A program made the translations under genes and the position numbers. A DNA stretch of 64,000 bases from Schmidtea polychroa (lineage: Eukaryota), in the NCBI GenBank assembly GCA_044892525.1, contig CM097885.1, positions 65,348,001 to 65,412,000 of the forward strand, read 5' to 3'. Each line of letters opens with the position of its first letter. The first letter of the stretch is position 1. Below are positions 2,529 to 63,513 of the stretch, piece by piece. Under the pieces are notes generated by a model that had not been told where the DNA came from, did no database searches, and saw nothing but the letters and a program-made list of their open reading frames with translations.

Positions 2529-4740
2529 CCCTACACTGCATGACTTTTTATATTTGATAGGAAAAAATGTTTTTAAGGGGAAATTACCGTCTGAGTTCAG
2601 GAAAAATACACAAAAAAATTAAAAATCACTAATTTAGTAGATATTATGCAATTTCAATATGTATCACCAGTGATACATTATGCAGTAATACAAATGGTGT
2701 AATACGGAAATACATAATATAATAATAAAATGCATATATCTTCAATATAACACAACTTGTTTGGCAGTTTATTATAATTCAAAATAACAATTCATTATAA
2801 GTTCAAATAAAAAATATATAATTAAAAAAATAACTAAAAAATATAAAAAAATATAAATTAATTCATAATAATTTGATATAATATGACTATAGGAATGATT
2901 TATTTGTTCAAATGGAAATTGGTAAAACAATTTCTATTTTTTAGAAGGCACAAATTCGATTTACATTTTTCACATGACAGAAGATAAAAAGTTGCATTTT
3001 GGATTTTTACATCGTTGCCTCTCATCAGTCCATATTGGCCAATGTGCAAATTTGTCCAATCGAACGTCTGCTGGTGGATAATGAGTTGCTGACGTTTTCT
3101 GTCTTTTCGCTTCAATTGCAGTTTTTATTTTTGTGCTAGATGGTCTACCTTTTCGAGTTGTAGACGTGCAAGTTTTACATAAACTCTCAGCTACTTCAAG
3201 TCGAAAATCCAATAATGACATAGTGTCCTTGTATCTCTCGTCGAAAGCGCGTTTATATAATAACCATGAATTTACCAATGATACATCTATCAAGTGGTAA
3301 AAAATTCTTATGTACCATTTTTTGGATCTTATTTTAATTTTATATCTACCAATAAGACTATCAGTTTTATCAACTCCACCCATAAACATATTATATTCTT
3401 TGATTATATTTGGGCATTCTAAAGTAATCATTTCCTTTCGATTTTTGTCAAAACGTTCAGCTGTTTGTATTGGCTCCTTTCCTGTGAACGTCGAAATCAA
3501 ATTTACAAGCTTGTTATCTTTCCAAACTACAGTTGCAATTTCAATTTCATCAATGCATCCAACATATTCTACAATAGTGCCACGTTTTTCCTTTTTTCAT
3601 TCTATTTCTGTAGGTAGCTTGCAATTTGGGATGCGATTTCTGCGAACTGTTCCAACGGTATATATTTGGTTTTTTGCTAATTCTACAACTAATGGCAACG
3701 TGGTATAATAATTATCGAAATATATACGATAATTTTCATATTTTGGAACACTGCGTAATAATCTGATAACAATGTTAGCTGAACAGCCCAGATCTGGTTC
3801 ATTGGATAGCCGTTTTGTAGGATAATTTTCCTGCCCGGTATAAATTTCAAAATTGTACGTAAATCCGGAAATTCCGCTTAGTACAAAAAGTTTGTAACCC
3901 CATTTGTGAGGTTTGTCTGGCAAATATTGTTTCAGATAACTCCTAGCTTTGGTCGAACATAACTGTTCGTCAAGTGACAAACACGGTTCATATGGCACGC
4001 TTTGAAATTTATTTAGAAGAGATGTTATAAGAGGTCGAATTTTAAATAATCGATCGTGTTCTGCATGACCCCTAGCAAGCATTTTAGTGTTGTCATTGAA
4101 ATGAATAAATTTTCTAATTTTTTCGAATTGATTTACAGCCATTGTCTCTTGAATTAATTTATTACCTATGACTGGTGACCAATACTTTCTTGTATTAGAG
4201 ATATGAACAACAGAAGTCAATACACAAATTCCAATATACTGACTGATTTCCGTTTTATTTATTTTGAATGGATGTGCAGGATAATAAAAACATGCGACAG
4301 ATTATAATAGTACTGTATATTTTTGTTATAATATTTATTTACTACAATGCATGATGTATCAACAGTGATACATGAAGTTAATATTGATATATAAAGGAAA
4401 TAACAATAAGTTATATAATAAAATGTTGTTTTAATAAATAATATAGTATATTATTAAACAAATTTAACTCAACTTACACTTTTTATATAAAAAATTCAAA
4501 ACGTATAACTGATTGTTGTCTAAGTACTTTGTACACTTTCACTTAAACTGTAAGACGTTTTAAAAATTGATTTGGTAATACAAAACTATTGAGAATTACA
4601 TTACGGTTTTTTTGTATTATATTGCAAATATAGCCAATACAATGTAATATGAGAGAACATTTACCGAGAACAAGAGCGAGACAGTTTTTATTCTAATAAG
4701 ATAATTGTGTATCACCAGTGATACAATATGCAGCGTAGGG
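2529..4740 (-). mobile_element. piggyBac element with both ends, defective transposase
   Basis: TTAA at 2525-2528 and 4741-4744; 13-bp TIRs CCCTAC(A/G)CTGCAT. Confidence 0.92.
2900..4271 (-). pseudogene. piggyBac (PGBD3-like) transposase, N-terminally deleted
   Basis: Motifs SLDEQL, KPHKWGYKLF, YFDNYY, MGGVDK and a C-terminal Cys-rich domain (CKNPKC..CEKC..LC..C..H). One in-frame TGA at 3597-3599 joins the two track ORFs; a frameshift lies near 2975. Confidence 0.9.
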
Positions 4741-4938: not shown

Positions 4939-5560
4939 CCTGGCTTCCTATTAAATGGAATTCGATTAAATAGGAATTACCATAAAATGGAGTTTCCATA
5001 ATATGGAAAATACAACTAAATAATTTTATTAAGAAACTCGGAACTTGGCATGGAACATAAGCCATCTTTTAGCCTTTGAATTCTAGAAAAGGCCTCACGA
5101 TATTTTTTTTCTGAGGGTTTGATGGCTCCAAAATGCTGTGCAATTGCAATACTTCAATGGCGTAGGATGGTTTTAAATTCATTTAAAATATTGCTTGTGC
5201 TATCAATGGGATGCTCGTGTAAACCATTTACTTTCTCCAAATTCTGATTATTGGTAATGCATGTGACTTTACACCCTAAAAATGTGCATATCCAATATTC
5301 GTTTTGATTGCCGCCTTTACCGTTTTTTTAAACCTATAATCATTGACAATTGGCATGAGTGTCTTCTTTTTATTTTTTATCCAACTGTGTTCATTAAAGG
5401 ATTGTAAGAATTTGGACAAATTAATCTATTAAAAAATTATGAGTTTTTAAGTTTTTATTAAAAATAAAATCGTCGATTATTTGATTTTATTATCTATTAA
5501 ACGCTTTGTTTATATTTTCAATTTTATGAGAACTCCAGTTTATGGGAATTCCACTTTAAT
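4939..5560 (-). mobile_element. Non-autonomous MULE-like insert with FLYWCH zinc finger remnant
   Basis: Minus frame NDYRFKKNGKGGNQNEYWICTFLGCKVTCITNNQNLEKVNGLHEHP (after a 1-nt shift). Imperfect ~40-bp inverted repeats at about 4965-5005 and 5520-5560; AATAAG duplicated at 4933 and 5561. Confidence 0.6.
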
Positions 5561-6116
5561 AATAAGTAGATGAAAAATTGTTAAAATAGCCATTCCTATT
5601 TTTTCAAGGAAAGAAAAATTATCGAGAATAGATTTCCAAGTTTTAAGAATTTCATCTTCGCCATATCTCTGGACTGCTCCAATTAATCGATCTCGTTCAA
5701 TTTCTTCCAAAATGATTCTTAAATCAATGAATTTTTGTTTCCATATTGAACTAGATTGAAAATACACCAATTGCATCTCAAAATCTTCTAATTTCATAAA
5801 CTCGAATATAGTTAAATTTAACTGTTCGTATGTATAATAATCTGGACGAGTAATAAATTTTGAAGTTTCTTTAAATTGTCGAAATTGTATAAATCTTGCA
5901 GAAAATTGTTCAATTGTAGCTTCTAAAATATTCCACAAGTTTTTGTTTTTTAGTTGGAACTGCCATTTTTGTAATTTATTCTAAATTTAATTTAAGTAAA
6001 ATTACAAAATCTTTACAATATAAGAAAAGAACAACAAATTAATCACAATTAAATACGTACCAATTAATATTTAATTTAAACTTAATATTTGATTTAAATT
6101 TAATTTTCACTGTTCT

Positions 6117-6224
6117 CTATGAATTGCATAATGCTAATTTTTGTTTTAATTCTCTGATTTTTGTCGTTGGATGTACTTCTACTTCTTCGCATGTTTTATC
6201 GGGATATTTGATTCGAATTCGGTA
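6117..6224 (-). pseudogene. Ubiquitin-like module, N-terminal half
   Basis: YRIRIKYPDKTCEEVEVHPTTKIRELKQKLA has the beta1-beta2-alpha1 pattern of ubiquitin ([31 protein letters not shown]). Confidence 0.5.
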
Positions 6225-6600
6225 CCTTTCTTGGGTATCTGTAGCCCATTCTTGATTTCTCCATTTTCTAATAATCTGATCTAATTGTTCTGGATACCAT
6301 TCATTGTATTGTCGGTATTCCTCTGTCTCCTTTACTATATCTCTAAAATAATGGATATTTTCTGCTGCCTTTAAGATGAAGTTAGCTAGTGCTATTACTT
6401 GTCGTTTCTGGTTTTTTGCTCATGTAGCCAAGATCTTGCTCAGTTGTTTATGTTTTTCTTTCTCTTTTCGATCTCTTACTTCCTTTGTTTCCTCACTGTC
6501 CATATCGGCATATTCACGTTCCTTCTTTCTCATTGCATGTATGTCTTATTTCGGTCTCGCTTTCTGACGTGACATCCGTTTCACTTTCGTTGCCTAGTAT

Positions 6601-7170
6601 CTATTCCATTTCTTCTTCGTACTCTGGCAGTTCATCTTCCTCTTCTTCCGATTCGGTTTCCGTTTCTTCGATTTCTGTTTCTGCAATAATTCCTTTCTTG
6701 ATTTCCCATTCTTTTCTTTCTGTATTCCAGACTCTTTCCCACGGTGTCCGTCTGCAATTTCTGGTGTTCAACTTCTTTAATTCTCCGTGTAAATCTGTTT
6801 CCTTTAACCATTGCTGATAAATTCTAATTATTTCTATTGATTTGCGATATAGCGTTTTCATCATATCTCTTATTTCTCTCTGGTAGGTAATGTCTCTTGT
6901 CTGGAACTCATCCATTGGGAGTATTCTGATGATTTGATGGTTATCCCACATACCGATTTCGCCTAGCGAGATGTCGTCATCTGCTCGTAATATCATTTTG
7001 TCATACATTTTCACCACGTCGTCTATCATATCATCCTCGCTATACTTCCGTACTTTTTCCATTATTGTTTCATTTATCTTTTCCACCAGTTCACCGACTG
7101 TATTTTGATTACACATTTCCATTTGTTGTTTCTCTTCATTTGGCAACCATATCGTTATTTTCAATTTCAT
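6601..7170 (-). CDS. 189-aa element ORF with N-terminal ubiquitin-like domain and acidic tail
   Basis: MKLKITIWLPNEEKQQMEMCNQNTVGELVEKINE...KMYDKMILRADDDISLGEIGMWDNHQIIRIL resembles a beta-grasp UBL (TVGELxEKI helix; L-x-D-x-SLGE-x-G motif). Confidence 0.55.
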   Translation of the reverse strand: MKLKITIWLPNEEKQQMEMCNQNTVGELVEKINETIMEKVRKYSEDDMIDDVVKMYDKMILRADDDISLGEIGMWDNHQIIRILPMDEFQTRDITYQREIRDMMKTLYRKSIEIIRIYQQWLKETDLHGELKKLNTRNCRRTPWERVWNTERKEWEIKKGIIAETEIEETETESEEEEDELPEYEEEME

Positions 7171-7603
7171 TGGTTGTGTATCTTTTAGTCTTCCATATTT
7201 TAAGGATTAGGATAGTAGTTCTCCAACTACTCATTCTGAATAGTTCCGTATCCCGTAAGTTGCTCATGAGTTCGTACATGGCTGATGATTGCTTTTTCAG
7301 TAGTAAGTCCCAATTGTCTTTTACTTGCTCTTGGATTTGTTTGATCAATTTCTCTAAATTTCGTTTCAAGATGTATTGTTTGGTTTGTTCTAATTTCAGT
7401 TTAATGTTGAATTCGTATTCGGCTTTTGCGTCCTTAGCCCGTTCATAAATTTTAACTAGTTGTTTTTCTTTATACATTTTTAGTATTTGTGTTTCCCCTG
7501 GCCAGATCAGTGCATCTATTAAGTGCATATCAGGTTTGATCAGTTCGCCTTGATATCGATATAGGTGTTCCTTCTTCCTTGAGCCACCTAAATGCTCTTG
7601 TTA

Positions 7604-7838
7604 TGTTGAGAATTACACTTAGTTTGTGTATAATTTGTATAAGAAATCTGAAGGACCCGATAGAGTCACCGTTAAAAATATGGCGGGACAATCGGGGTGC
7701 GTGTTGTGTATGTTTACAAGTTAATAAAAAATAAAAATAGAAATAATAATAAACAATAATAACTCTTTTATTAAAATCTAAATAAAAATCCTTAGTATTC
7801 TTCTTTAAAACAATTTAATCCAACTTTTCGATTTAACA
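7604..7838. mobile_element. Short solo-LTR-like insertion inside element 1
   Basis: Starts TGTTG and ends TAACA; flanks GTTA/GTTC (3 of 4 match); the reading frame IEMNEQEHLG rejoins across it. Confidence 0.5.
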
Positions 7839-7944
7839 GTTCATTCATCTCGATTCTAGTTCTTCTTGTTCATATAGTCTTGATTCGTAATGTTAATTTT
7901 GTTATTTTAAAAATTTTCAATGTTTTATTGATTTTTTTTCTTTC

Positions 7945-7980
7945 TATAGCGATAGTTTACTATAGTAAACTATCGCTATA
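7945..7980. repeat. Perfect 36-bp palindrome
   Basis: TATAGCGATAGTTTACTA|TAGTAAACTATCGCTATA is its own reverse complement. Confidence 0.95.
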
Positions 7981-9277
7981 TAGTTTTTTTAATACTTTTT
8001 ATTTCCGCCAATTAAAAAATGTAAAATGCTACTACAGCTCTCGTATCCAATCGAACAGTTCGTCGGTGACCGTATTTTTTATCCATATTTTCTCAAGACC
8101 TTTACTTGTCCCGATTTTTATTACATAGTGCATTGTATCAACTTGTTTCATGTTTTCCATATATTTTTTTATTAGTAATTTTCCCTCATTCGGTATTACA
8201 TCCTTCTCGTTCCGTTCCAATCCCATTATTTTTTGGATAAAACGTCTGAATGGTATTAAGACAATAAACTCCTGGTTTCTACCACAGGGATTATTTCCGT
8301 TATCCGTTTTATCGCTTCTCCCTTCTCTTTTCTTGTCTTCATTTCGATATTTTCGTCTTCACTTTCACTCGTTACGTCGCTTTCGTCTTCGCTTTCATTT
8401 CTTCCGATTTTTTCTTTCAGCTGTCCGATTACTTCGTTCAGTTGCAGTTCTTCTCCACCTAAACTGCTCTCATAATCCTCGTTATCTGTTGTCGTTCTCA
8501 TCATATTAATTTGTAAATTTCTCATTTTTGCTACTTTCTTTAGTTTTTTATTTTTGAATATTGTTTCTTCGTCTGATTCCAATTCTTGTATCAGTTTATG
8601 GTTTAGGTGGCTGATTTGCTCCTCGTTTTTGTTACTTTTATTTTCCGTTTCTGTTTTGGTTTTATCATATTCCTTTTCAATTCTATCTTTTATCTTTTTC
8701 CAGAATATTTTCTGAATTCTCTGATTTCCTTTTAGTATTGGTTGAGGATTTCCGTTTTTGTCCTCTGTTTTTACTACTTTTACTGTCTCTGGTTCGGTCA
8801 TGAGTACTACACGAGGTTTTTCCCATAGTTATAACAATACTGGTTCTTCATGTCTTTTACCATTCTCATCATATTTATTCGTAGTGGTTGACTTTGTCGT
8901 TGCTGATTACGTTCTTGTTTTATTCTTTCTTCCTCCGCTTGTAGTCTTTACCATTCTTGTATATGTTGTTGTATCTCGTAATTGTTGATATTCTCTGTAC
9001 TTCTCATCATACATATATTCTGTGTTTGTTGTGGTGCTTGGTTCTGACTTGCTCGTATTAATTGTTGCATCATCGGCTTCATCTGTGAAATTTCCTGCAT
9101 GACGTTCATTTGCTTCCCCTCGCTTGGATTGTTTTGTCGCTGCGGGTTTGGTACGTAGTTATTGGTTCGTTATTTATTATTCGTGTTATTCCCATTATTC
9201 GTGTTATTACGATCATTATTGTTTCCACTTGGTTGTCCTTGCGGTTGTTTGAAAATTTGATGTGCTCCTGGTATAAA

Positions 9278-9829
9278 TTAATTCGTTTTTGGTTCTTGAT
9301 TATTGTTATATCCGTTTTCCGTTTTTGCTATTGCTGCTGTAATTCTCCCGTCTTCCTGCATGACATTCATTTGTGCCGGGAGGTGACTTTCACATCTCGT
9401 AGCCCAATCTACGGCTTCTTCCAGTGACTTGCACATTTGACATCCTACCGATGTTCTCACTTCTTCTCGGCGTAACCCTTCTATGAAATAGCCGATCAAA
9501 TTTTCTTCCCGTAATTTTCCATCCATGTCCTTCGTTGCCAATCGCCGTAATTCACTTGCGTACAACGTTATTGACTCGTTCGCCCTTTGTTTCCTACTTG
9601 CCAGTTCACCTAATGCTTGGTTGATTGGTTTGCTGGTTCCGAAGGTTTTCTTCAAAAATGTTTTTATGTTGTCCCAATTGTCTAATTTAGTATCTAGCGG
9701 CATTCTTTTGCTGATTGCTTCCGGTGTCCAACCACACACCGTTATATAAACCTCAAAATTCGTTATAAATGTTGCCAAGTTATTCGCATTCCCATTGAAT
9801 TTTTCTAAATTTTTCTTTATATTCTTCAT
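9278..9829 (-). pseudogene. Ty3/gypsy-type Gag (capsid-like) of element 1
   Basis: EKFNGNANNLATFITNFEVY..CGW, LASRKQRANESITLYASELRRLA and YFIEGL..EVR are typical retrotransposon gag segments. The frame continues past TAA stops to a degenerate knuckle CYNYGK near 8830. Confidence 0.75.
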
Positions 9830-10941
9830 TTTTCGTGATTACTGGTATATCGCTCGTCATGATTGTTTTTTGTAGTTCTACAGTTTCACTTAAATTTTTC
9901 AGCGATGTTGTTGAACTACTGACTGATAGATCTTCTGTTGATGCTGTTAGACTGTTTGCTATATCTATTATATTATTCTTGCTTCTGGATCGATTTAGTA
10001 TCTTCTCTGGTATCGGGTTTTTTTTATCCTCTGTTTAATTTTTCATTGATTTCCTTGGTCATTGTGATGATCCTCTTCTAAAATGCGTTGATCGCGATCT
10101 TTTAAGCTTCTCAAGTTGGTCTAGATTATATAAATGTTCAAACTGATTACTTGAGGATCTAAGTGCTCTTTGATTATCCGTGATTTCCTCTTGTGTTTCT
10201 TTGTCTTCTCTTGGTTCTTTCTTACTTTGTGCGGGTTCTGAATTGGTTTGTCCTAATTTGCTGCAGTGTTTCTTCGAAGTCCTTCTATGTGGGTTCTGGA
10301 TTGGCTTGACTGGGTTGATATCTACAATGAAAAAATGATACCGTGTTGCATCCGCTTACACGAATCAATCGCTCTTCTTGCAACATCCAAGCACAAACAC
10401 CTTTATGGGTTTCTATTTATGCTCCGCTTACTTTTTACCTATATCATCCCGCGGGTTATAATTACACATCATCCCGTATTTTTCGTCGATTTTAAATTAT
10501 CAATATGGGGTAGTAACAATTATCTATATGGTCGTATCAATTATCTATAATTATCATTTATAATATCAATAGGTCGTTTTCTGTTGCTACTTATTACCTC
10601 CCTCATTTTCCTAATAAACTTTTGCTCAATTTTCGCCATTTTACTTATCTTTTTATATCTAGTTCACTTATTACTCTTTACTCGGTTCTACTCTGGAACC
10701 AAAAATCAATTTTTCCCCCTTTTTCGATTTTGAACCCAAAAAATTTTATTCCATTTTCGTTGAACTTTCTCTACTTATCTGGGTTCCTCTTTTATTTATT
10801 TATTTTCTTCCTTTCTGTTGTATATTTCCATTTATCCTTTATTTTCACTATCTCATTTAATTCATTTTATTTAATAAATCAAGAAAATGTTTTACATCGG
10901 CTATTCAACTAGAAGATCCTTCATTGAGTGGCAGTCATATC

Positions 10942-11430
10942 TTAGTTGTAATAAATGACGTGTTTTTCCTTTATTTCGTATGTGCACATTGAACAATGTG
11001 TTAAGATGGTGATACATTCCTCACAACGGCTGAGGTGTCCGCGTGGTAGTATACAGAATTCTGCCAGGTCGCGTTTTACAGATGTTACATGCTCTCAATG
11101 CCGTCGTTTTCTCCTCAATTCTGGTTCGTATTTTCCCAGGCATAGTTGTAAGTTGGTCGCGTATTTTTATATATTCGGTATTTAAATCTGGGTCTTCTAG
11201 GCGTTGTTGGTACCTTTGGTAATGAGTCGGCATATCTGTGATGTTGCTGGTTTGTCCTAGTTTATCGGTTATGTAATTTTGTTTTGACACAAGCGGTGCA
11301 TCGTTGCGTTGCTGTTCTATAAGTTCTATTTGCGTAAGTTTTTCTGTTAAAGTTGCTATTGAATCTTTCTCTATGTCGATGAATTTGATCAGTTGTTGTA
11401 GATGTTGGTGTGCTTCTTACATATCTGAAT
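10942..11430 (-). pseudogene. Coiled-coil plus IAP/XIAP-type C3HC4 RING ORF
   Basis: Removing one inserted A near 11050 gives CNICKTRPGRILYLPRGHLSRCEECITILTHCSMCTYEIKEKHVIYYN*, with spacing C-x2-C-x11-(C>R)-x-H-x3-C-x2-C-x6-C-x2-C. Confidence 0.7.
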
Positions 11431-11959
11431 AAATTACATTTTTATTTATTGGTTCTCATTTTTATCAGAATTAATGTTACTGCGGTTTTAACTTTGTATT
11501 TGGTTGTCGTTTTGGTCAATTTTATTTTAACATTTATTGGTTTATTTAATTTAGTTTATCTTTTATTTTCGATCAAATCTCCCCCGTCGCACTCTCCTTT
11601 TCAAAACACTTTTAATTCCTTAATCGTTACTTTCTTTAGTCGACTCCCTTTCAACTTCGTCTTTATTTTATTTGACGAATTTAAAACAGTTAATTCTCGC
11701 TTCCCATTTTAACGTGCTCAATATTTTCAACGCATACCCATATCTCAGTTTTTTGTTTTTAATTTAGTCCCCATAATCAGATTCATTCGAATTTCTCACC
11801 ATGGTTTTATTTCATACTTTTAGCACAATTAGATCAACGCACTTCAACTCAATCCTTGGTTTCGTTTCAATTTATACCACATTATCATAGTAATTCAGTT
11901 CAATCCCCACTACATTCTAATATAATCAATTGAATTGAGTAAAATCAACTCATCCCGGC

Positions 11960-13230
11960 TGAGCCCCCAAAAATCATGTTGGAATACTTGGGGGGAAAGA
12001 AAATTTAAACGTTCTCCTAAGCTCAGAATTCGACTTCCCAAGCATCCAATATGACTTACAGATCATCTCCCTTATGTGTGCCCGTGGTGGCGAAACACGT
12101 TGGTACTGCGCACATAGGTCGGAATTTACCGGCAGGTGAGCTCCTATGTTAGAACTACTCCCGGCAAAATCTCGGTACGGGTTTGATGGTGCCATAGAAG
12201 GACTTACCCCGTTTTAGTCATTCAATCAGTGCGACCCTGGTTCAACGGGACGACTTTATCAACGAAAAACCCTCTTCAAGCAATTACCTTTAACTTGATA
12301 TTCTACAGACAAACAAAACTGGTAGTAACGATTACTATGATTTATTATTAACCACACACAAACAATGATTACATACAGATAGATTTCGCAGAATACAGTG
12401 AACACAGGACATACATTCAGAGTCTGGGAAAATGTTCGAGTGGACGGCCGACGATCACTTTGCCGCATCATGAATCAGTATTCAGAAAAACACTTCGCCT
12501 TCGGCTATGAAGGCGTCGATGTCCACCTGAAGCCGAGGGTCCTCCAGCGCTTTGCTTTCCCCAGCAGGGACGTGGCGATAACACTCGGTTGAGACTGACA
12601 CCATTGTTTGCGAAATTGCCTTATTAGTGGTCTGAGTGGCGAATAAAGAAGCTTCTAGGGCCGTGATGGTGTCTCGTCGCTTCTGGTTTTTCTCTGCTCG
12701 TTTCTTTGGGGCAGAAAAGTAGCTGCGACGGGTTGATTATTCGATGACTTAGAAGCGACGCCCTGTCCGGTAGTTGCCTGGAAATTCACTTCGCGTGAGG
12801 ATCTTGACAACATGGGTTCGATTAGTGGCGAGAGTTGGAATCCATGCCCCGAGCAACTAGTTGAAGGTTGCTGTGTTTCGTCATTTCGATGGTGGATGGA
12901 GAATATGTTGGTTCCCTCCTGGATGGGATACTCTCGTACCCGTTTGAGAATTTCCTATTCGGAGTACACTTTATGGAGCGCCTCGGATTGGGCTTTAATA
13001 TGGTCAGCCGTTGACATCGGCTTTTCTCCAGGAGGCTATCCCTGCAATGCTCTAGTCTGAGTATTTTTGTTTTCTCTGCCTTCATCTGTGGTGGAGAGAA
13101 CCACGTGCATTCTTATGTGTCTTTACGTTTTTTGAGAGCCCCAATGTACGCATGAAGTTTCCGGATGTCTTCATTCTTATCCGCGCATGAGAAGCACGGG
13201 CGGAGTTCTTTAGCTGGCAAATTTTACTCG
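11960..13230 (-). mobile_element. GC-richer, internally deleted relic of a probable RLE-type (R2/NeSL/R4-like) non-LTR retrotransposon
   Basis: Clear GC island. With frameshifts the 3' part reads FVDKVVPLNQG...EILPGVV-SNIGAHLPVNSDLC...GKSNSELRRTF, resembling a restriction-like endonuclease C-terminus. No RT motifs seen. Confidence 0.4.
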
Positions 13231-62398: not shown

Positions 62399-62883
62399 CA
62401 GGGGCCCTCTGGATCACATACCCCTCCCCCACCCCCCCCCCCCGGAAAAAAAATAATTTTTAGAATGATGCCACATATTTTTAGAACTATTACGTAACCA
62501 ATGCCTAATATTTTTAGAACTATTACGTAATTTTTTAAAATTAAGTGATCCAGAGGGCCCCTACTTTTTTTCATCCCAAAAATTAATGTTCTCGTTAACA
62601 GATTTTATTGACCGATACCTCATCTTAAAGCTCAGTCCAAGACCTTTCGAATGAGCTATAGGTATCTTATATATCTTTAATAGTTTTAATGTTATTAACA
62701 TTTGATGACCACCATCTTTTCAAAGTTAAATTATTATTATTTTCCAAAATATTATTAAGTGATCTGGCGGGCTCACACTTTTTTTCATCCCAAAAATTAA
62801 TGTTCCCATTATCCGAATTTATTGGACGATACCTCATCTTAAAGCTCAGTCCAAGACCTATTGAATGAGCCATAGAAGGTATC
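62399..62883. repeat. 165-bp MITE-like unit (19-bp TIRs) plus a ~120-bp dispersed duplication
   Basis: (C/T)AGGGGCCCTCTGGATCAC inverted at 62399 and 62563; 62564-62663 is repeated at about 62778-62883. Confidence 0.7.
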
Positions 62884-62932
62884 ATCATCATTATTATTAA
62901 CAAAGAGAATGACTCACCCAATGACTCACCCA

Positions 62933-63295
62933 ACGATGTCTAATATTTTTAGAACGATGCCTAATATTTTTAGAACGATGCCTAATATTTTAGAACGATT
63001 ACGTCATACTTTTAGAACGATGCCTAATATTTTTAGAATGATGCATAATATTTTTAGAATGGTGTCTCTTATTTTTAGAACGATTACATCATACTTTTAG
63101 AACGATGCCTCTTATTTTAGAACGATGTCTAATATTTTAGAACGATGCCTATTATTTTTAGAATGATTACGTCATAATTTTAGAACGATGCCTAATATTT
63201 TTAGAACGATGCCTATTATTTTTAGAATGATTACGTCATAATTTTAGAACGATGTCTAATATTTTTAGAACGATGCTTAATATTTTTAGAACTAA
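62933..63295. repeat. Minisatellite, about 21-23-bp unit TTTTTAGAACGATGCCTAATA
   Basis: Many imperfect tandem copies, followed by (TTA)n at about 63350-63395. Confidence 0.9.
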
Positions 63296-63349
63296 TAATT
63301 TTTGTTTTAATTATCGATTACATAATAATTTAATTTGTTTAAATCGTTG

Positions 63350-63394
<45 letters not shown>

Positions 63395-63513
63395 ATTATA
63401 ATTATTAATATTATATACTCCTAGTCTATCCGACAAAATATTCTGTCCCCCTATGGGTACTGCTCACAAATGTACTACTCACATTCAACAAGTCACAAGG
63501 GTACTGCTCACAC

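Follow-up and report, generated by a model that had tools for sequence, protein, structure and literature searches.

Predicted ubiquitin-fold domains between the capsid and envelope regions of Burro-like planarian retroelements

Why should a retroelement carry three ubiquitin-like modules, and where in its coding plan do they belong? The question arises from a 64,000-nucleotide stretch of the Schmidtea polychroa genome (the window), in which the initial annotation placed three such modules on the minus strand downstream of Gag in a first element. It located them where pol would be and proposed proteasome or ESCRT engagement, or a decoy function. Giant gypsy-like elements have been described from planarians: Burro/GYPSM1 elements exceed 30 kb with LTRs and encode a single ORF of ~4,800 aa (PMC6431247, the 2019 review of Arkhipova and Yushenova, through which Jurka 2007 and Grohme 2018 are known here). 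We find that element 1 is a dead, truncated Burro-like copy of the Ty3/gypsy, envelope-bearing type. In its intact sisters elsewhere in the host genome, structural modelling predicts three ubiquitin-fold domains (UBL1 to UBL3) between the capsid and envelope regions.

All of the module peptides quoted in the initial annotation lie on the minus strand at the places given there. For module 1 these are HYVIKIG (8130-8110), DWIRE (8052-8038), EHLGG (7597-7583) and QILKM (7489-7475); module 2 runs from MKLKIT (7170-7153) through HQIIRI (6939-6922), and module 3 from YRIRIK (6224-6207) through LKQKLA (6149-6132). The modules do follow a Gag capsid domain. Compared with intact family-A copies, the element reads as follows:

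11977..13214, minus: 5' LTR remnant, inner end CCAACA at 11977, outer end not located (blastn to family-A LTR at 12068-12209 and 12965-13214; end motif)
11952..11969, minus: primer-binding site (position and sequence as beside the LTR of a family-A copy)
10952..11434, minus: decayed upstream accessory RING (C3HC4) ORF (72% DNA identity to L024:4247-4728, an ORF matching zf-C3HC4_3 at E=5.9e-8)
9278..9838, minus: Gag capsid domain (PF03732, E=3.8e-9)
9169..9186, minus: junction of a ~0.2-kb deletion in which two CCHC zinc knuckles were lost (blast gap L021 7772 to 7548; tblastn gap aa 336-433)
8496..8513, minus: QINMMR, candidate retroelement-protease site before the UBL1-UBL2 block (motif found again at domain boundaries of families A and B)
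8358..8378, minus: first acidic DVTSESE segment, a linker specific to family A
8038..8130, minus: UBL1, first part, strand-strand-helix (80% aa identity to intact sister; model residues 8-39)
7599..8036, minus: solo LTR of an unrelated LTR family within UBL1 (438 bp, 5-bp target duplication)
7475..7597, minus: UBL1, second part (homology to sister; model)
7200..7474, minus: helical segment between UBL1 and UBL2, frameshift near 7203 (model helices 86-170, low confidence; no Pfam family)
6913..7176, minus: UBL2, uninterrupted, beta-grasp with lengthened acidic helix/loop
6619..6630, minus: LPEY at the place of the intact family-A PPxY, a candidate WW-domain ligand
6556..6576, minus: second acidic DVTSESE segment, directly before a candidate protease site; frameshift near 6539
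6230..6419, minus: helical segment before UBL3 (model helices 379-491, low confidence; no Pfam family)
6132..6224, minus: UBL3, first ~31 residues, the element being truncated here

Module 1 is indeed split, but by one 438-bp insertion (7599-8036); the two insertions originally proposed were rejected. The insertion ends in TG...CA, includes a 36-bp palindrome and belongs to a dispersed repeat with 64 matches among 40 scored candidates. Among seven other copies, three have clean 5-bp duplications, two follow a polypurine tract and two precede a PBS-like TGG. Given these duplications and neighbours, we identify the insert as a solo LTR of another family. The acidic DVTSESE segment is repeated as annotated (8378-8358 and 6576-6556), with codons that differ at synonymous sites between the two strings. 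A self dot-plot of 6100-8600 gave no sign of internal duplication between the modules at the DNA level, and their recent origin by DNA duplication was rejected, as was a host gene as their source.

The window copy is itself an ordinary decayed fragment and cannot make UBL products. It shares 71-78% DNA identity with intact family-A copies and 80-85% with two other decayed copies (blastn), and retains only the part from Gag to UBL3, with the zinc knuckles deleted (tblastn). Its frameshifts, near 8816, 8280, 7203 and 6539, all fall outside module 2. Homology to intact copies ends at ~6125-6131, inside module 3, leaving ~31 of its ~66 residues. Searching the window by tblastn recovered no Bcl-2, Env or pol of element 1; the only matches were two unrelated RT fragments and one integrase fragment (32-36% identity). 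The closest decayed sister (L031:8333) ends within a few bases of the UBL3 break in the window (6121-6131), and the sequence beyond differs; the common stop point possibly marks a shared old deletion derivative, or is a coincidence. At the other end, the primer-binding site presumably resembles the 3' end of tRNA-Pro. A 253-aa ORF without Pfam match lies inside the 4.2-kb family-A LTR (L024:2497-3255, L183:3346-4104), with remnants at 12482-13214 of the window.

The intact sisters settle where the modules sit. In the 781-Mb host genome, the module-2 ORF has 150 scored matches among 703 candidates, and ~58 of the 150 (hand count) fall in open frames of 4,700-4,812 codons. Sequencing runs presumed to be RNA contain contigs resembling the family, which we do not take as a sign of expression. 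Read stretch by stretch, natural family-A copies encode in one frame Gag with its pair of CCHC knuckles, then the three modules and a weak Bcl-2-like region, and after these a PF24664 fusion glycoprotein, protease, RT, RNase H, integrase and ankyrin repeats (Ank_2, E=5e-19). Across intact sisters, Gag (retrotrans_gag plus CCHC) and PR-RT-RH-IN share one ORF of ~4,700-5,100 aa. Env lies in frame between Gag and protease (PF24664, E=1e-70 in L022 and L025) and does so in families B, C and E as well. From this order and the tblastn state of the window, the modules precede Env and pol. The view that they occupy the place of pol does not survive: Env and complete pol follow them in the same ORF of intact sisters, the window copy is truncated, and replacement of pol was rejected.

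One family-A copy spans 30.6 kb, with LTRs of ~4.24 kb that are 99.97% identical and a 4-bp target duplication. A RING ORF lies upstream of the family-A polyprotein (E=9e-11), and a separate TRAF-like ORF (RING-zf-MATH; MATH E=3e-26) lies downstream. No BIR was matched in 15 ORF pieces scanned, which cover part of the accessory ORFs. The Bcl-2-like region before Env matches PF00452 below cut-off throughout (E=0.019 in A, 3.8e-5 in D, 2.5e-5 in E), and its GGW motif recurs in all five families examined (A to E). At L026:7080-9678, three more accessory ORFs (347, 234 and 214 aa) without significant Pfam match follow the TRAF ORF.

The beta-grasp assignment is supported by prediction. By the terms of the initial annotation, lack of a beta-grasp prediction for at least module 2 would have refuted it, and module 2 is predicted to have that fold. 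In the predicted model, modules 2 and 3 have strand-strand-helix-strand-strand-strand topology and superpose on ubiquitin; the same topology is predicted for module 1, which aligned only jointly with module 2 and not alone. Jointly, modules 1 and 2 (model 7-269) align with 143 of 152 ISG15 residues and 147 of 154 FAT10 residues, at a rigid rmsd of ~17 A. Model quality is modest (mean pLDDT 53, pTM 0.28; about 50-82 in the modules). The top fold matches include Ddi1, Dsk2, FAF1-UBX and UBXD7, and matches to ubiquitin, SUMO, ISG15, UBX and shuttle UBLs are tied. With HMMs built leaving one module out, shuffles reached the score of the omitted UBL2 in 0/300 cases in three of three tests and that of UBL3 in 0/300 in two of two; for UBL1 the counts were 9, 0 and 1 of 300.

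Profile searches were less decisive. No Pfam ubiquitin profile exceeded its curated cut-off, the best being PF00240 at E=0.0028 (A3) and 0.0016 (C1) and UCH_UBL1 at 0.017 (B2). The window by itself gave sub-threshold matches to ubiquitin (E=0.14, module 3) and PI3K_rbd (E=0.023, module 2), and the Rad60/SUMO-like PF11976 reached E=0.14 for window UBL3 and 0.0047 in family E. Against PDB sequences, the UBL1 and UBL2 profiles alone found no UBL, the best UBL2 match being a designed helical repeat (E=1.4e-4); alignments that included the whole of P0004 were dominated by MATH. A joint profile of the family C and D units matched ISG15 at E=1e-6 and ubiquitin at ~0.003. HHalign, run without a database and underpowered, placed U1, U2, U3 and UC1 no higher than shuffles against host ubiquitin, and the pairs U2-U3, U3-UC1, U3-UC2 and U1-U3 at 0/30 shuffles. 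The highest score in an ESM Atlas search with a 561-aa region was 0.81, which we treat only as a lead. Word-based homolog searches returned nothing significant among 6,912, 7,928 and 3,479 candidates. The full HMMER scan gave three matches, two of them real; the third, a PAS/GGDEF protein, was spurious. Each UBL is preceded by a helical segment of 60-90 residues with a similar I-x-K-[YFWL] end (by eye). These segments have no Pfam family, no fold match and, H1-HC2 excepted, no significant profile match to one another; they might be TFIIS-N-like bundles, in a part of the model where confidence is low.

Selection appears to have maintained the modules. Between two intact family-A subfamilies, dN/dS is 0.023, 0.014 and 0.054 for the three modules in order (dN and dS 0.028 and 1.20, 0.021 and 1.52, 0.044 and 0.81; dS thus 0.8-1.5), values that indicate purifying selection in intact copies. 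For module 2 of the window against a sister, dN and dS are 0.18 and 1.60; the window comparison over helix+UBL3 fell out of register and is excluded. In family B (51/51 scored matches to P0004), whose RT-RH is 89% identical to that of A, the three modules are all present, at 39-46% identity to those of A, and a MATH domain lies in frame between modules 2 and 3. Two UBL-like units occur in each of families C and D, and one in family E (Rad60-SLD, E=0.0047); RT-RH identity to A is ~50% for both C and E. In other words, UBL number varies from one to three, and at least one UBL lies between Gag and Env in all five families. Pairwise protein similarity among UBL1, UBL2 and UBL3 is near background, and identity to ubiquitin is 9-23%. 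The slot directly after UBL2 is filled by MATH in family B and in P0004; a Cys/His zinc-finger-like region stands there in P0005 (by eye), and PPxY does so in family A.

The likeness to Burro1 is one of described domain layout. The review describes Gag with CCHC knuckles, a Bcl-2-like domain, ankyrins, an in-frame env between Gag and protease, MATH within the polyprotein or as a separate ORF, and, between MATH and BCL-2, a single Ubi2/SUMO-like domain (PMC6431247); module 3 occupies this position. Since MATH in family B sits as in the published Burro1 layout, module 3 corresponds to the published UBL. Where the review names one UBL, three are predicted here (one to three in relatives), two of them upstream of the MATH position; a TRAF ORF also lies downstream of the family-A polyprotein, and no BIR was detected in the pieces scanned. 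In the literature covered on planarian Burro/GYPSM1 and retrotransposon UBLs, the 2019 review alone describes a Burro UBL; Lee et al. 2026 (Dev Cell), Grohme et al. 2018 or supplements may already annotate more. The two further predicted UBLs would be a modest but real extension of the Burro annotation, in which about half of the polyprotein was previously unannotated, and would place the one SUMO-like motif already published within a tandem array whose size varies. Gag-Env-Pol order and a class III-type fusion protein (PF24664) are shared with platyhelminth GAG-ENV-POL errantiviruses with gB-type Env, in an eLife survey whose main text mentions neither Burro nor ubiquitin (PMC13524379).

What might these domains do? 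Tandem integral UBLs of eukaryotes (ISG15, FAT10, OASL, USP11, PI3K ABD/RBD, all among the fold matches) likewise have more than one beta-grasp unit per chain, but here the units are separated by 90-230 residues of helix and acidic linker, and no specific ortholog stands out. Coronavirus nsp3 Ubl1 and Ubl2 are non-conjugated, protein-binding beta-grasp domains inside a viral polyprotein, although the virus is unrelated and the parallel an analogy only. Rad23/Dsk2-type UBLs that bind the proteasome have an L8-I44-V70 hydrophobic patch, and UBX domains of p97 cofactors an FPR loop motif (the title of 3qca names an FcisP turn). In MAFFT sequence register, L8 is kept in 0/16 domains and I44 in 1/16, and FPR is absent from 16/16; UBL3 keeps G47-K/R48. 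Loss of the L8 and I44 equivalents leaves the annotated proteasome engagement weak. The annotation also judged conjugation unlikely for want of a terminal GG, which is borne out in family A. GG occurs in 0/20 family-A copies after UBL2; after UBL1 it occurs in 0/47 copies and after UBL3 in 0/3 examined, and it is absent from P0004. Family B instead has PSGG a few residues after UBL2 in 29/30 copies (L083:2890-2925). The two glycines of this PSGG are exactly those missing at the same place in P0004.

Our favoured reading, held tentatively at a probability of roughly 0.45, is that the UBLs are released as accessory proteins and, without being conjugated, offer adaptor or decoy surfaces within the ubiquitin-dependent survival signalling of the host. 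In families A and B the motif I-[NHC]-[MA]-M stands ahead of both the UBL1-UBL2 and the helix-UBL3 block, and in A it also follows integrase; by the same pattern, families C, D and E lack it. Beside these candidate protease motifs, family A has the acidic DVTSESE segments as linkers. Cleavage there by the element's own protease would yield [UBL1-helix-UBL2-(MATH or PPxY linker)] and [helix-UBL3-...-Bcl-2-like] products, whose UBLs could offer binding or decoy surfaces toward host ubiquitin and cell-death signalling. We prefer this because RING, TRAF, Bcl-2-like and ankyrin cargo, that is, ubiquitin and apoptosis machinery, lies alongside; the earlier suggestion of decoys is kept as a candidate in this form. 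We rank it ahead of an internal structural or assembly role, in which the UBLs would bind partners from the element itself (Gag/nucleocapsid, RNA or the Env tail). Such a role, possible if unlikely, fits the retention of a UBL between Gag and Env in every family, including those without an ankyrin match, the very low dN/dS, and the binding of nucleocapsid protein by coronavirus nsp3 Ubl1 (PMC9938351, PMC8769549). Counter to it, UBL number varies and the modules share almost no sequence. Moreover, ordinary gypsy elements assemble without UBLs.

The remaining possibilities carry less weight. Shuttles of Rad23/Dsk2 or UBX type, delivering clients or the accessory proteins themselves to either the proteasome or p97, would suit the fold matches to Ddi1, Dsk2, FAF1-UBX and UBXD7 and the G47-K/R48 of UBL3, but those matches are tied with SUMO, ISG15 and ubiquitin. 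The absence of GG in A and P0004, of L8/I44 and of FPR argues against classic proteasome or p97 shuttling, conjugation and DUB-cleaved spacers, and we regard shuttling as improbable. Quite improbable, too, are SUMO mimics (Rad60/NIP45 SLD-like) binding Ubc9 or SIMs in the nucleus, for example near chromatin. In their favour are the acidity of UBL2 (net -7 to -11), the family-E Rad60-SLD match, the published Ubi2/SUMO-like name (PMC6431247) and an AT-hook-like (K/R)GRP that lies, in A, B and E, past the last UBL and before the Bcl-2-like domain (L022 aa 988-996; L083 aa 1588; L171 aa 709); yet UBL1 and UBL3 are near neutral, the matches fall below cut-off, and C and D lack the AT-hook-like motif. 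ESCRT engagement, as annotated, finds no support in the UBLs themselves, which have no late-domain motif, and is supported only indirectly by the family-A linker after module 2, where PPxY occurs in 18/20 copies (0.06 expected by chance in a 1,171-aa piece; LPEY in the window). With Env in frame, the UBL block and PPxY might help enveloped particles to bud by recruiting Nedd4-type ligases and ESCRT; we consider this very unlikely, as B has PPxY only inside MATH, no exposed equivalent occurs in P0004, D or E, and PT/SAP is lacking. Scarcely any weight falls on conjugatable modifiers or cleavage spacers for host deubiquitinases, despite PSGG in family B and the precedent of BVDV: cytopathic pestiviruses also place a ubiquitin fold inside a polyprotein, but theirs is near-identical ubiquitin cut by host hydrolases (PMC8310069), against 9-23% identity and no GG end here. 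A SIM-like hydrophobic-acidic stretch follows UBL3 in family A (by eye).

Returning to released adaptors or decoys, a broader version is speculative and, as a whole, doubtful: Burro-type endogenous viruses may carry an expandable array of [helical bundle + ubiquitin-fold] units, one to three depending on the lineage, in which the slot that recruits an E3 can be exchanged (MATH, TRAF zinc fingers or PPxY). Once freed by the element's protease, the array would act as a synthetic ubiquitin-signalling adaptor and, together with the TRAF, IAP, Bcl-2 and ankyrin proteins of the element, would sustain the survival of host stem cells. If true, it would amount to a poxvirus-like host-manipulation kit within a retrotransposon polyprotein. 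According to a secondary source, the IAP cargo of Burro1 protects planarian stem cells from apoptosis, and Burro1 reportedly aids regeneration through an anti-apoptotic cargo gene (PMC13465017). The UBL boundaries and likely cleavage products define small expressible units for testing host partners.

Several other sequences accompany element 1. At 62453-63513 (plus strand) the window has an 84% match to the tandem repeats downstream of the L023 TRAF ORF; this fragment is distinct from element 1, belongs to a related element and runs in the opposite direction. A piggyBac-type transposase with one internal stop lies at 2970-4301 (minus; PF13843, E=6e-46). Just past the truncation, at 5540-5980 (minus), is a 146-aa ORF without Pfam match, which we take to resemble a hAT-type transposase fragment. 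Elsewhere in the host genome, many dispersed Bcl-2-like matches occupy frames of ~150-180 aa (e.g. L156-L170), dozens with an internal TAG, which suggests another repeat family carrying a Bcl-2-like gene. Dozens of near-canonical ubiquitin units, often paired, occur within long ORFs and are probably distinct from the Burro UBLs.
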